A DNA stretch of 33,986 bases from an uncultured Candidatus Saccharibacteria bacterium (lineage in GTDB: Bacteria; Patescibacteriota; Minisyncoccia; Phycocordibacterales; VMEP01), in assembly GCA_964364185.1 (NCBI GenBank), contig CAYIKU010000001.1, positions 19,258-53,243 on the forward strand, written 5' to 3'. The stretch's first letter is position 1. Each line of letters opens with the position of its first letter. The notes beneath the pieces were generated by a model, which was given only the letters and a program-made list of their open reading frames with translations, was not told the origin of the DNA and made no database searches. Positions 11,566-14,367 of this stretch are shown here, piece by piece. The position numbers were made by a program, and so were the translations under genes.

Positions 11566-12099
11566 GTGAACAGAAACGCATTCTTTTTTGTCGCTATCAT
11601 ACTTATTTTATTCGGCGTAATGGTGCGCTTGTTTCCACATCTTCCTAATGCAACCCCTATAACCGCAATTGCTTTTGCGAGCAGTATTTATCTCGGTAAA
11701 CGGTGGTCAATTATTCTTCCCATATTTACACTTTTTCTTTCGGATATATTTATCGGTTTTTATGATTGGAAGATAATGTTAAGTGTTTACAGCTCTTTTG
11801 CTCTTATTGGATGTTTAAGCTGGGTGAGCAGAAAATACGGCGGAATTTTTCCTGTTTTTCTTTCGGTTATTGGGTCGGCACTTCTTTTCTTCTTCATTAC
11901 CAATGGCGCGGTGTGGCTTTTTTCTCCATGGTACGAAAAAAGCATTTCCGGACTTTTGTATTCTTATGAACTCGGCATTCCGTTTTTCCGAAATATGTTG
12001 ATGGGGGATATTATTTATACCGCGCTTCTTTTGGGAGTGTTTGAATTTGTAAGAATGGGGGTTAGGAGAATGGGAGCGGGGATTAAGATTGGGCAGTAG
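11566..12099 (+). CDS. Polytopic membrane protein, possibly a solitary ECF-S-component-like vitamin (cobalamin?) transporter
   Basis: 177 aa, GTG start, about 5-6 hydrophobic helices, PNATPITAIAFAS motif. The functional guess rests only on context with the adenosyltransferase and DUF4430 genes. Confidence 0.4.
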   Translation: MNRNAFFFVAIILILFGVMVRLFPHLPNATPITAIAFASSIYLGKRWSIILPIFTLFLSDIFIGFYDWKIMLSVYSSFALIGCLSWVSRKYGGIFPVFLSVIGSALLFFFITNGAVWLFSPWYEKSISGLLYSYELGIPFFRNMLMGDIIYTALLLGVFEFVRMGVRRMGAGIKIGQ

Positions 12100-12147
12100 G
12101 GGATACTATAATTGTTAAAAAAAATTCTTTCTTTACTAAAATAAATA

Positions 12148-12156
12148 TGTTATAAT
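12148..12156 (+). promoter_or_regulatory. Extended -10 promoter (TGtTATAAT) candidate for the retron non-coding RNA; a second TATAAT lies at 12175-12180
   Basis: TG at 12148-12149, TATAAT at 12151-12156. No good -35. Confidence 0.35.
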
Positions 12157-12177
12157 ATGAGTATACTTTGGTAATAT

Positions 12178-12439
12178 AATCTTCCCGATTCATCGCTCAA
12201 GGCGATTTCCAAGTTCAGGAACTAAACCTGCCCCACCGGAAAAGATATTGTTGTGAAATAATTCATTTCAATATCAATGAAAGTGCTTATCGTGGAATGA
12301 TATATCAGGCTACGCTTGATAATTCATAAAACGAATAGTATAACCGTATGACAGTTAATTCTTATATAGTAATAATCTGACTTAAGCTGAAGCAATTTAG
12401 CTTAAAAGGTCGATTATCAAAGTAATTTTCGGGAAGGTT
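12178..12439 (+). ncRNA. Candidate retron msr-msd non-coding RNA
   Basis: Flanking inverted repeat AATCTTCCCGA (12178-12188) / TCGGGAAGGTT (12429-12439): 8 perfect bp, 10 of 11 overall. Internal hairpins at 12192-12206, 12216-12230, 12262-12281, 12303-12321 and a 16-bp bulged hairpin at 12372-12417. Lies directly upstream of a retron-type RT. Confidence 0.45.
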
Positions 12440-12474
12440 CGCGGTTCACCGCCGGCTTTTTCGAGCAAAATTTT

Positions 12475-12678
12475 ATGAAAGATGTAAATAAGAGGCTTGG
12501 AGCTCTTGCGAGTTTCGTTAAAAGTCTCTCGGTTATTCTTTCTGGAGTTTTTTCTTTAATTCCGTGGGTCAAGAAATTGTTCTACCTGATTAAGGAATTA
12601 CTTCAGCATTACCTTTGGACACATCGCCTTGCAAAACGGGGCGATGTTTTGTTTTATGAAGAAAATTATTACACATAA
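12475..12678 (+). CDS. Small (67 aa) predicted single-pass membrane protein overlapping the RT start
   Basis: ATG ORF. Hydrophobic stretch LGALASFVKSLSVILSGVFSLIPWV followed by a basic/amphipathic tail. Its stop overlaps the RT ATG at 12656 by 23 nt. No clear SD, so coding status is uncertain. Confidence 0.35.
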   Translation: MKDVNKRLGALASFVKSLSVILSGVFSLIPWVKKLFYLIKELLQHYLWTHRLAKRGDVLFYEENYYT

Positions 12679-13573
12679 AAATTTACATAGAGAGATAAAC
12701 ACGATAGACGATTTATGTCGCATGCTTTCTCTTGAAAAATATTTTTTGCAAAAACATATCCGTCTTTGTCCTTTGCTATATATAGAAATACCGCTAAAAA
12801 AGAAAGATGGCACGCCTAGACCAATTCGAGCGCCAAAAGATAAGTTAAAAATTATACAAAGAGCTATTTTAAAAAATATACTTTCAGGTATAAAGCTACC
12901 CTCATGCTGTTATGGTTTTTCAAAAAATAAATCCATTATTGAAAACGCGAAAGTTCATTCAAAAAATGATTTTTTACTAAATCTTGATATACAAGATTTT
13001 TTTCCAAGCGTGCATTATAAAAAGGTTCAACAAATTTTCTTAGATATAGGATTAAGTGAAGAAATTGCCATTATTCTTTGCGGTTTAACTACTTACGAGT
13101 ATAGGTTGCCCCAAGGAGCGCCGACAAGCCCTTTTCTTGCCAGTTTTGCTCTTTCAAACCTTGATTATAGACTTATGCGATTAGCAAAATCTAACTACTT
13201 AACTTATACAAGATATTTTGATGATATTTCTTTTTCAGGGAACAAAAGAGTGGTTGTGCTAGAAAAAGACATTATGAAAATTATTAAGGAAGAGGGATAT
13301 ACAGTTAAAATTAGCAAAAGAAAGCTTTTTACAAAGAATGAAGCAAAAGAAGTAAATGGTGTTTTAATCACAAACAAGAAATTATCACTTAGAAATACCG
13401 ATGAATTATTTAATTATGTAAGTGATATTAACAAGTATGGTTTATCTAAATTACAAACTGACAACCTAGAAAAAGAGAGGCAATCACTCAAAGGGAAAAT
13501 TGCCTTTTTGAAACAAGTTGATCAAGAACAATCAGATAAAATAGAAGCAATTTTTACTTCTATTTTGTGGTAA
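12656..13573 (+). CDS. Retron-type reverse transcriptase
   Basis: RPIRAPKDKLKIIQRAILKNIL, ENAKVH (NAxxH), LNLDIQDFFPS, LPQGAPTSPFLASFALSNLDYRL, YTRYFDDISFS (YxDD box), EVNGVLIT (position of the retron VTG). Colinear with retron Ec86 RT as I remember it. The ORF is open from TTG 12629, and alternative ATGs lie at 12644 and 12656. Confidence 0.85.
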   Translation: MKKIITHKNLHREINTIDDLCRMLSLEKYFLQKHIRLCPLLYIEIPLKKKDGTPRPIRAPKDKLKIIQRAILKNILSGIKLPSCCYGFSKNKSIIENAKVHSKNDFLLNLDIQDFFPSVHYKKVQQIFLDIGLSEEIAIILCGLTTYEYRLPQGAPTSPFLASFALSNLDYRLMRLAKSNYLTYTRYFDDISFSGNKRVVVLEKDIMKIIKEEGYTVKISKRKLFTKNEAKEVNGVLITNKKLSLRNTDELFNYVSDINKYGLSKLQTDNLEKERQSLKGKIAFLKQVDQEQSDKIEAIFTSILW

Positions 13574-13620
13574 TTCTAAACTAATTATCTAATTTTTATA
13601 CAGCTTGAATTAAAAGAAAA

Positions 13621-13647
13621 CTATGATAATAAAATTTATTATCATAG
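13621..13647. terminator. Bidirectional hairpin between the convergent RT gene and the 64-aa gene
   Basis: Stem CTATGATAAT (13621-13630) / ATTATCATAG (13638-13647), with A/T-rich flanks on both sides. Confidence 0.5.
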
Positions 13648-13683
13648 TCTAGTTTTAATAGCAAGGGTTATTTATATAGAAGG

Positions 13684-13878
13684 TTATTTATCCCAGGGAA
13701 TATTGATTTTCTGTCCACCAGGAATTTCAACCGTTGTATGCCCATTATTAATATTACCATTTTGATCCACTTGAAATGTGTCATGCACTCCACCACCCAT
13801 AGGGGGAGTGATACCATTGATGGGTTGAATCCCGTATCCATTACTGGTAGTTTTAAATGAAGAGTTATCGTTGCTCAC
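13684..13878 (-). CDS. Small Gly/Asn-rich hypothetical protein (64 aa)
   Basis: GTG start at 13878-13876 with GAGGA 7 nt upstream (RC of 13886-13890) and a consensus promoter upstream. Sequence MSNDNSSFKTTSNGYGIQPINGITPPMGGGVHDTFQVDQNGNINNGHTTVEIPGGQKINIPWDK has no TM segment or signal peptide. Confidence 0.6.
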   Translation of the reverse strand: MSNDNSSFKTTSNGYGIQPINGITPPMGGGVHDTFQVDQNGNINNGHTTVEIPGGQKINIPWDK

Positions 13879-13919
13879 AGTATTTTCCTCGCAAAAAAGG
13901 ATAACATTATCCAGTGAGA

Positions 13920-13947
13920 ATTATAGTTTGTTGGTGTTTAAAGTCAA
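13920..13947 (-). promoter_or_regulatory. Consensus sigma70 promoter (TTGACT-16 nt-TATAAT) for the 64-aa gene, followed by a palindrome
   Basis: Read on the minus strand, the -35 TTGACT is at 13947-13942 and the -10 TATAAT at 13925-13920. The palindrome GGATAAnnTTATCC at 13899-13912 lies between the -10 and the RBS. Confidence 0.6.
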
Positions 13948-14126
13948 TATCTTGTGGATACTCCCATAGAAAGTTCTTATGCGGTAAGTTTAAAATGAAC
14001 GCCTTGCGTACTTAATCTATATGGTCACAAGTTACTAAACATATTTCCTCGCCTTGCTCGAAATCTGTATAAGTACTTGGCGACCCCAGCTCGTCCCGCC
14101 AAGCGGGACTGCGCTTTCATAAATCT

Positions 14127-14153
14127 AAAAAACTAAAGCAGTTTGCCTGCTTT
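14127..14153 (-). terminator. Rho-independent terminator of tRNA-Glu
   Basis: Minus-strand AAAGCAG-GCAAA-CTGCTTT (14153-14135), then AG and T6 (14132-14127). Confidence 0.6.
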
Positions 14154-14163
14154 ACATAATTTT

Positions 14164-14235
14164 TGACCCCACCGGGAATCGAACCCGAATTTGAAGCTTG
14201 AGAAGCTTCCGTCCTAACCGTTAGACGATGGGGCC
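14164..14235 (-). tRNA. tRNA-Glu (anticodon CUC)
   Basis: Minus strand GGCCCCATCGTCTAACGGTTAGGACGGAAGCTTCTCAAGCTTCAAATTCGGGTTCGATTCCCGGTGGGGTCA. 7-bp acceptor stem (one G-U), D arm GTCT/GGAC, anticodon stem GAAGC/GCTTC with loop TTCTCAA, T arm with GGTTCGATTCC. No encoded CCA. Confidence 0.9.
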
Positions 14236-14367
14236 ATATTTTTTTAAGATATCATTTTTTGAAAAATACATACATTCCTAACTGTTACCTGTCTGCCGAC
14301 AGGCAGGGACAATGGGGGCATGTTTACAATTTTCAATTTACAATAAAAAACGCTTTAAAACAAACTT

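Follow-up and report, generated by a model that had tools for sequence, protein, structure and literature searches.

Is the DNA directly upstream of the reverse transcriptase (RT) gene at this locus the source of a retron RNA and, if so, how are the ends of that RNA paired and where might it be primed? A first-pass annotation of the window (the whole 33,986-nt stretch of DNA analysed here) had read positions 12148-12460 as a candidate msr-msd RNA with a promoter, a single a1/a2 inverted repeat, a branching guanosine at G12187, and an msd part made of hairpins. We addressed these points with a comparison set of 19 family loci whose RTs are 40-100% identical; the loci are related, and the counts given below are therefore not independent events. 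The features that emerged are collected in Table 1.

Table 1. Features of the RNA-SP-RT cassette, with positions in the window
Feature	Position	Strand	Evidence
Extended -10 box, TGTTATAAT	12148-12156	+	TGnTAnnnT in 18/19 loci, TGCCATACT in the 19th
A5, 5' strand of helix A, at the extreme 5' end of the RNA; partner 12413-12424	12164-12175	+	9-14 bp in 19/19 loci
B5 (the earlier a1), pyrimidine-rich; partner 12429-12439	12178-12188	+	helix B of 8-12 bp in 19/19 loci
msr-like hairpin 1, AUCGC/GCGAU	12192-12206	+	95.8% of cells paired, 4/5 pairs compensatory
msr-like hairpin 2, UUCC/GGAA, followed by conserved ACUA(A) motif	12207-12225	+	88.2% paired, 3/4 pairs compensatory
Variable hairpin-rich middle, putative msd body	12240-12380	+	neither sequence nor length conserved
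Conserved hairpin UUAAGCUG / UAGCUUAA, 3' end of putative msd	12382-12405	+	93.4% paired, 5/8 pairs compensatory
Near-invariant GGUCGA motif, immediately 5' of A3	12408-12413	+	conservation in 19 loci
A3, 3' strand of helix A	12413-12424	+	same evidence as A5
B3 (the earlier a2), purine-rich; pairs with B5 or B'	12429-12439	+	duplex energies and compensatory columns
Small hairpin GCGG UUCA CCGC, inside the B3:B' helix	12441-12452	+	4/4 pairs compensatory
B', alternative partner of a2, ends 10 nt before the small-ORF start codon	12454-12465	+	B3:B' of 10-15 bp in 19/19 loci
SP, 67-aa small hydrophobic/amphipathic protein, candidate effector	12475-12678	+	ORF in every family locus
Terminator-like hairpin (12621-12647) plus U-run	12621-12654	+	terminator scan; 95.9% paired, 7/9 pairs compensatory
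Retron-type RT	12655-13573	+	RVT_1, 8e-20

Results

The inverted repeat in the window

The sequence features on which the msr-msd proposal rested were all confirmed in the window. TATAAT hexamers lie at 12151-12156 and 12175-12180, and AATCTTCCCGA (12178-12188) can form 10 of 11 Watson-Crick pairs with TCGGGAAGGTT (12429-12439) or, as RNA, 11 of 11 pairs including one G.U. G12187 is the sole G in 12172-12194. The hairpins ATCGC/GCGAT and CAGG/CCTG are found at 12192-12206 and 12216-12230, respectively, and the minimum free energy (MFE) fold contains an inner hairpin at about 12303-12321 and a bulged hairpin at 12371-12417. A 296-nt stretch folded better than its shuffles (z = -5.7, 0/200 shuffles), and its MFE structure was closed by this a1/a2 repeat.

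As the first-pass annotation itself had cautioned, an 8-bp repeat alone is not compelling. Ten inverted repeats longer than a1/a2 occur within the same 651 nt, and the best duplex between the 5' and 3' ends of the RNA was equalled by 5% of dinucleotide shuffles. Judged on one sequence, the repeat could be due to chance; it gains its significance from comparison.

An unclassified retron-type RT

The best PADLOC retron RT model matched the downstream gene product at 2.5e-74, and the nearest solved structure was that of the Ec86 RT (1.5e-34). The motifs that define retron-clade RTs (NAxxH, YxDD, and VTG-type) were present, the family consensus being ENAxxH, YFDD, and ITG, with VNG in the window RT itself. 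The ATG at 12655 is the start conserved in relatives.

Scores against the PADLOC models of individual types were flat: 248 bits for III-A, 238 for II-A, 238 and 218 for two further III-A models, and 216 each for VI and XIII. By comparison, the genuine III-A RT of an outgroup locus, encoded beside PRTase and winged-helix genes, scored 400 bits on its own model. The NCBIfam model for the retron St85 RT gave 214 bits, under its cut-off of 235. No PADLOC match to an NDT-like or PRTase-like effector, the kinds associated with types II-A and III-A, was obtained in the window; outgroup loci L022, L024, and L045 carry such effectors. As judged by its motifs and scores, the enzyme is of the retron type and none of the established types is a fit for it, and the lineage appears to match none of the 13 types either by RT score or by effector.

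A compact cassette with unrelated flanks

The RT homologues came almost exclusively from Patescibacteria metagenome-assembled genomes (MAGs). All 19 loci shared one order of elements: promoter box, RNA, SP ORF, hairpin with U-run, and RT. The layout of the RNA was likewise common to them, running from the box through a helix strand, two short hairpins, a variable region, a conserved hairpin, the GGUCGA motif, two strands, and a small hairpin to the ORF.

Flanking genes were unrelated from locus to locus; a tRNA gene or the gene of a large serine recombinase is the neighbor in some of them. The cassette is therefore a mobile unit that consists of the RNA, the small ORF, and the RT only. In the window it adjoins tRNA-Glu and is located in a stretch of low GC content (31-33% vs. 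about 40%). A conserved downstream effector was considered and rejected, as the neighbors differ in every locus; the 64-aa minus-strand ORF at 13684-13878 had a counterpart in no other locus. A DGR-like reading was rejected as well, since no part of 12148-12680 had a second copy elsewhere in the window. A metagenome scan with the two most conserved retron motifs yielded at least 79 distant retrons and one family member cut at its 5' side, and these were of use as an outgroup only.

Promoter and extent of the transcript

Both TATAAT hexamers had been put forward as promoter elements. The first lies within TGTTATAAT, a promoter-like box that is conserved in the family and always precedes the first helix strand by 7-9 nt (19 loci). 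The second is not conserved as a box and falls in the transcribed helix strand 12164-12175 and the adjoining linker, so that only the first stands. The box was missing from a two-hexamer promoter scan because it has no -35 element.

From the position of the box, transcription would start at about 12163. The transcript probably includes the SP ORF and ends at the terminator-like hairpin (12621-12654), which would give a predicted RNA of about 490 nt (12163-12654). This hairpin is formed by the 3'-terminal part of the SP ORF and, in 19/19 loci, directly adjoins the start codon of the RT. The functional RNA, originally drawn to 12460, thus probably reaches 12654 and includes the 67-aa ORF.

Local structure of the RNA

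Of the two msr hairpins in the original proposal, that at 12192-12206 was well conserved, while the pairing at 12216-12230 (73.4% of cells paired) was weaker than an alternative at 12207-12221 (88.2%), which is the conserved form of hairpin 2. The middle region folds into hairpins in the window, and the interval from B5 to A3 varies from 159 to 269 nt across loci. Positions 12240-12380 may serve as the template for reverse transcription. The 16-bp bulged hairpin at the end of the putative msd was retained in part: its core (12382-12405) covaries, with A12385 and G12386 invariant in the 19 loci, but its outer part (12413-12417) overlaps the strand of helix A at 12413-12424. In the GGUCGA motif, G12409 and C12411 are invariant, and G12408 and U12410 occur in 18/19 loci. 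Two other candidate pairings, one between msr hairpin 1 and the hairpin that precedes the RT and one between 12323-12335 and the RT start, were unconserved in relatives by inspection and were rejected.

Long-range helices A, B, and B3:B' covary

Compensatory change was seen in eight columns of helix A, seven of helix B, and six of B3:B', counted with anchoring on the well-aligned 3' strands and with registers fitted by duplex prediction, a procedure that favors pairing. For helix B, the annotated a1/a2 repeat, this corresponds to 7 of 11 positions in the 19 loci, and even in an uncurated alignment 6 of 10 pairs changed on both sides. Within B3, U12429, G12431, G12436, and G12437 are invariant.

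Since MAFFT mis-registers short helices, we applied an alignment-free test in which the energies of cognate and non-cognate duplexes are compared. Cognate strands paired more stably in helix A (-10.6 vs. -6.2 kcal/mol), in helix B (-18.0 vs. -11.3 kcal/mol), and in B3:B' (-15.7 vs. -12.8 kcal/mol), the last being the weakest cognate-specific signal. Three control strand combinations were flat, with cognate equal to non-cognate.

RNAalifold, applied to the full-length alignment, gave a consensus of 52 pairs that included helix A and B3:B'; compensatory change was seen in 32 of these pairs. When the named structure was evaluated with a1/a2 as the crossing helix, 88.7% of cells were paired, compared to 77.3% in shuffles, and its covariation score was 0.488, compared to 0.268 for shuffles and 0.12-0.21 for slid partners. 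B3:B' is rich in G.U pairs and therefore fits an RNA of the + strand only. In a sister clade from Nomurabacteria and Saccharibacteria MAGs, whose RTs are 36-42% identical, the sequence was different and the A/B/B' layout was the same.

These data indicate that the stretch from the box at 12148 to the 67-aa ORF is a real, conserved, and covarying structured RNA. The proposal of a structured + strand RNA directly 5' of a retron-type RT was thus borne out in the 19 loci. Its msr-msd reading was broadly right, including the msd-like character of the variable middle, but it had missed both the second long-range helix and the competing partner of a2.

We also looked for the RNA among known families. 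In Rfam, only the tRNA reached its gathering score, and nothing credible was found at E ≤ 10 in 11900-14300, the retron msr family included. A covariance model of the 3' module matched the window and L001-L009, among them L007, which was not in the seed; neither the sister clade nor any of 80 other retron loci gave a match. The model therefore links the RNA to no other retron type.

G12187 behaves as a base-paired position

As the site of the 2'-5' branch, the first-pass annotation had singled out G12187, at the inner edge of a1. To our knowledge, a conserved G is the priming site of every characterised retron. In our family, 13 loci have a G at this position and 6 have an A. The position forms a G-C pair in 12 loci, an A-U pair in 4, and a G.U pair in 1, and two of the A loci (L004 and L103) face a C mismatch. 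Nowhere in the first 100 alignment columns did a G occur in 17 or more of the 19 loci, and the guanosine expected for priming where a1 ends on its inner side is thus not conserved. The Gs that are invariant are those at 12386, 12409, 12431, 12436, and 12437. Because G12187 behaves as one half of a base pair and the msr side offers no near-invariant G, the assignment of the branching G is unsupported. This RNA may prime differently or from a site that is not evident in the alignment.

The small protein and its place in the transcript

Every family locus has an ORF of 50-83 aa at the SP position (mean identity 30%), and each product contains a hydrophobic 17-mer with a Kyte-Doolittle mean of 1.2-2.65. 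AlphaFold2 predicted one long helix (pLDDT 82). SP had no match in Pfam, PADLOC, NCBIfam, or PHROGs. In the sister clade it has shrunk to a Leu/Ile-rich peptide of 20-21 aa.

The C-terminus of SP shifts reading frame between loci. Since the hairpin encoded there is retained despite these changes, selection at this point acts on the RNA. In most loci the SP stop codon overlaps the RT start as ATGA. This implies that RT is made only if SP is translated, an arrangement that would be awkward for a tightly repressed toxin. No recognisable Shine-Dalgarno sequence precedes SP, and it is therefore uncertain what the B3:B' stem blocks. The conserved msd hairpin is complementary to 12596-12607 in the SP ORF (-11.8 kcal/mol, compared to -4 to -7 for other segments of the ORF).

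Alternative readings of the RNA

Several readings of these data were weighed. A chance origin of the inverted repeat, in intergenic DNA that is rich in A and T, would agree with its unremarkable standing within the window alone; it is, however, refuted by the covariation in 19 loci and in the sister clade, and we regard it as scarcely credible. More can be said for a conventional retron with 12178-12188 and 12429-12439 as its sole a1/a2 stem, G12187 as the site of the 2'-5' branch, and only incidental pairing elsewhere. The msr of Ec86 consists of a1, then a G, a few nucleotides, and two msr hairpins, and the order at our locus matches this geometry. Helix B is moreover the most stable and best-covarying long-range helix, it dominates the ensemble of the window (P = 0.90), and a G is found at the 12187 position in 13/19 loci. 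The A of the other six loci speaks against it, as in four of these the partner has changed from C to U in the manner of a base pair and as the A-bearing loci are devoid of any G between a1 and hairpin 1. Helix A and B3:B', with their eight and six covarying columns, form the RNAalifold consensus and recur in the sister clade, and they are therefore not incidental. We consider this conventional reading unlikely.

Helix A crosses helix B, and B and B3:B' share one strand. It could be speculated that A and B coexist, closing the ncRNA by a pseudoknot that the RT takes as its substrate, with B3:B' formed only in unengaged molecules. Both helices are conserved and adjacent, their linkers are short and of fairly constant length (0-6 nt, mean 2.3, and 3-8 nt, mean 4.6, between stems of ~11 bp), and, with A5 located at the free 5' terminus, threading is topologically possible. 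From the established geometry of H-type pseudoknots, however, linkers as short as these cannot bridge full-turn helices; here, 0-6 and 3-8 nt could not span stems of 9-14 and 8-12 bp, whether stacked or side by side, and the conserved competitor B' would be left without explanation. A pseudoknot of this kind is in our view distinctly improbable. Another possibility is that the RNA is solely a cis-regulatory leader, i.e. a translational operator or attenuator of the SP-RT operon that is not reverse transcribed. This would fit the absence of an invariant priming G, the resemblance of B3:B' and of the hairpin with its U-run to regulatory elements, and the behavior of Type VI retrons, for which msDNA was undetectable at rest in E. 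coli (bioRxiv 10.1101/2025.10.22.683967; 10.64898/2026.04.27.721009). Against it, two covarying hairpins directly after a1 and a hairpin region of variable length between inverted repeats make up the pattern of a retron ncRNA. In addition, we know of retron-clade RTs only alongside an adjacent cognate template RNA. We judge that a leader without template function is very improbable.

Constrained folding of the 19 loci bears on the remaining choice. We compared two nested states, one with helix A and B3:B' (state 1) and one with helix B (state 2); nearest-neighbor folding was used, and pseudoknots lie outside its energy model. The energy difference between the two ranged from -8.8 to +3.1 kcal/mol. 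State 1 was lower in 14/19 loci, and state 2 was lower in the window, with P(B) = 0.90. Given linkers that could not accommodate a full pseudoknot and nested states of near-equal energy, a two-state switch is favored. Helices A and B would then be alternative states rather than a complete pseudoknot, and they may coexist in part. A retron RNA with two mutually exclusive end pairings is the best explanation of the data and, on balance, probably the correct one.

A model for a proposed two-state RNA

In the two-state retron RNA, state 1 would pair 12164-12175 with 12413-12424 and hold a2 in a local stem with 12454-12465 that reaches the initiation region of SP. State 2 would instead pair a2 with a1 just 5' of the msr-like hairpins, which is the canonical priming geometry of a retron, and would free the SP start region. 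As the RNA is transcribed, helix A would form first, followed by the local B3:B' stem, and state 1 would thus be the resting state, with a2 unavailable, the priming helix absent, and the SP initiation region partly closed. A switch to a1:a2 would present the RT with an Ec86-like priming geometry and, at the same time, permit translation of SP; B5:B3 is the more stable of the two competing duplexes (-18.0 vs. -15.7 kcal/mol). One RNA switch would in this way couple reverse transcription with production of the effector, and the switch would become irreversible once RNase H has removed the copied template. The direction of the switch, the state that primes, the synthesis of msDNA, and the toxicity of SP are all predictions of this model.

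Comparison with characterised systems

The features expected of retrons in general, a structured ncRNA on the same strand next to the RT with inverted repeats at its ends, were found here, with the difference that there are two alternative pairs of end repeats. The closest parallel is provided by Type VI retrons, in which the ORF of a small toxin protein lies inside a structured transcript of ~470 nt together with the msr-msd and has its ribosome-binding site sequestered (bioRxiv 10.1101/2025.10.22.683967; 10.64898/2026.04.27.721009). In two of these, Retron-Vpa2 and Retron-Sen3, long-range pairing connects the msd with the flank of SP (bioRxiv 10.1101/2025.10.22.683967; 10.64898/2026.04.27.721009), and in Vpa2 the msDNA derepresses SP translation (bioRxiv 10.1101/2025.10.22.683967).

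Our locus resembles this hybrid RNA in several respects. A structured msr-msd-like RNA leads into an ORF for a small hydrophobic helix and then into the RT, and the predicted transcript (~490 nt) is of similar size. An SP ORF embedded in a structured transcript with sequestered initiation is also what we predict here, as the region ahead of the SP start would be engaged in a stem formed in part by the 3' inverted repeat; the B3:B' helix ends 10 nt before the AUG. As in the IR1/IR2 repeats of Sen3, the 3' part of the msd is complementary to the 3' end of the SP region.

On the other hand, a Cro/C1-type HTH gene lies upstream of or overlaps the RT in about 78% of Type VI members (10.64898/2026.04.27.721009), and none is present here. 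Neither the 67-aa ORF nor the flanking ORFs matched an HTH family, and the 67-aa ORF was the only one between RNA and RT, as in 19/19 loci. The RT_VI model scored 216 bits against 248 for the best model, so that, as far as scores tell, the nearest classified relatives are III-A and II-A. SP is similar to nothing detectable, the host belongs to the Patescibacteria, and crossing end helices with an a1-like decoy such as B' have not been described for Type VI. With the HTH gene absent and the RT nearest to II-A and III-A, the element would work like a Type VI hybrid RNA, and we have not filed it as a member of that type. Similarity between the window RNA and the ncRNA of a Type VI retron from Levybacteria (census supplement) was not evident by eye.

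Retron-Eco1 (Ec86) supplies the closest solved relative of the RT and shares the position of the RNA upstream of the RT on the same strand, as well as the arrangement of a1/a2 repeats around two short msr hairpins and a variable msd. It differs in having the conserved branching G, which is absent here, and in lacking both the extra covarying helix at the very 5' end and a second partner for a2. An accessory gene between RNA and RT is a feature that our loci share with II-A and III-A retrons; unlike the NDT or PRTase enzyme of canonical retrons, the effector here would be a hydrophobic peptide of 50-83 aa.

A further likeness is to the type I toxin-antitoxin mRNAs hok and tisB, which encode small hydrophobic toxins and are translationally silenced. 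In these mRNAs, too, the initiation region of a hydrophobic peptide takes part in alternative long-range pairings with the 5' end of the transcript. In contrast to hok and tisB, our locus shows no sign of an antisense RNA; the regulator would be the retron RNA with its RT, and the toxicity of SP is putative.

Discussion

Taken as a whole, the cassette is best explained as a compact retron of Patescibacteria made up of promoter, structured RNA, SP, and RT, and we hold this to be probable, if short of firm. From its sequence, the element appears to be a variant of a known defence element rather than a textbook example, with competing end pairings and a branching G that is not conserved.

Retrons of the candidate phyla radiation (CPR) are essentially uncharacterised, and no paper on this lineage came to our notice. 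In the literature we met a single CPR retron, from Candidatus Levybacteria and filed as Type VI, which gave no detectable RT-DNA in E. coli (0 by PAGE). If the present interpretation is true, the system would be among the smallest retrons known: about 1.4 kb, with one RNA, one peptide of 50-83 aa (20-21 aa in the sister clade), and one RT. A compact, self-regulating pair of RT and template might also be attractive for making DNA with retrons. The work on Type VI left open how reverse transcription and effector translation can be coupled in the absence of a protein repressor, and the three pairings, which covary and exclude one another, bear on this question.

A bolder version of the model, which we offer tentatively and regard as doubtful, is that of a minimal two-gene retron that lacks an HTH gene and is regulated purely by RNA. 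Its bistable leader would couple priming to the translation of a membrane-active peptide, action in trans could open the resting state of further transcripts, and the priming site or chemistry would be unlike that of characterised retrons. If this is true, the missing invariant G would reflect a priming site or chemistry that differs from theirs, and the RNA would form a feed-forward switch in which the cell is committed once reverse transcription starts.

Possible control of the reverse transcriptase gene

To place these elements on the cassette, we list the features in and around the retron-like RNA, the small hydrophobic ORF (67 aa) and the reverse transcriptase (RT) gene in the table below.

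Features in and beside the cassette (window coordinates)
Feature	Position	Strand	Location or remark
DUF6580 membrane protein gene	11566-12099		upstream neighbour; 2e-39
a2 strand	12429-12439		purine-rich
a2 partners, a1 and B'	12178-12188; 12454-12465
Complementary segments	12386-12397 with 12596-12607		first segment, loop and 5' arm of the conserved hairpin in the putative msd; second segment, close to where the small ORF ends
GGUCGA motif	12408-12413		directly 5' of helix strand 12413-12424
Terminator-like hairpin with U-run	12621-12654		inside the final codons of the 67-aa ORF, 8 nt 5' of the RT ATG
64-aa ORF, Gly/Asn-rich	13684-13878	minus	between RT and tRNA
tRNA-Glu gene	14163-14236	minus	beside the cassette

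The hairpin ahead of the RT covaries across the 19 related loci, and in most relatives the stop codon of the small ORF overlaps the RT start codon (ATGA). Together, these sequence features suggest that the RT is attenuated and/or translationally coupled to the small ORF. A sister clade (L010, L011, L012, L013 and L017, from Nomurabacteria/Saccharibacteria MAGs) shares the three-helix layout upstream of the RT, formed by helix A, a1:a2 and a2:B'; its ORF is only 20-21 aa long and Leu/Ile-rich (e.g., MELIISLLLILLILRETNKA), and the hairpin with U-run ahead of the RT is absent from all five loci.

Pairing and sequence motifs in the RNA

The predicted pairing between the conserved hairpin of the putative msd and the small ORF averaged -11.8 kcal/mol over the 19 loci, compared to -4 to -7 kcal/mol for other ORF segments, with weak cognate specificity. 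This complementarity recalls the IR1/IR2 pairing of Retron-Sen3, a Type VI retron with a "hybrid RNA" (bioRxiv 10.64898/2026.04.27.721009). The GGUCGA motif is almost invariant in all 19 loci and could be a site of RT recognition or initiation.

The a2 strand resembles a Shine-Dalgarno sequence (GGGAAGG in the window, GAGGAGG in relatives), and both of its partners are ACCUCCU-like, similar to the anti-Shine-Dalgarno end of 16S rRNA. At Shine-Dalgarno distance 3' of a2 there is no start codon.

Genomic setting

As the 64-aa ORF has neither a family match nor a counterpart in any related locus, it is probably outside the system. At the other loci, the DUF6580 gene does not accompany the cassette.

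The cassette lies in a low-GC dip next to the tRNA-Glu gene (region 12000-14250). Elsewhere (L006, L109, L110, L112 and L113) it is found immediately 3' of a tRNA gene or beside a large serine recombinase, and its flanks are unrelated in these genomes. This low-GC setting, these neighbors and the unrelated flanks suggest that the cassette is an integrative mobile element or a resident of a defence-island hotspot.
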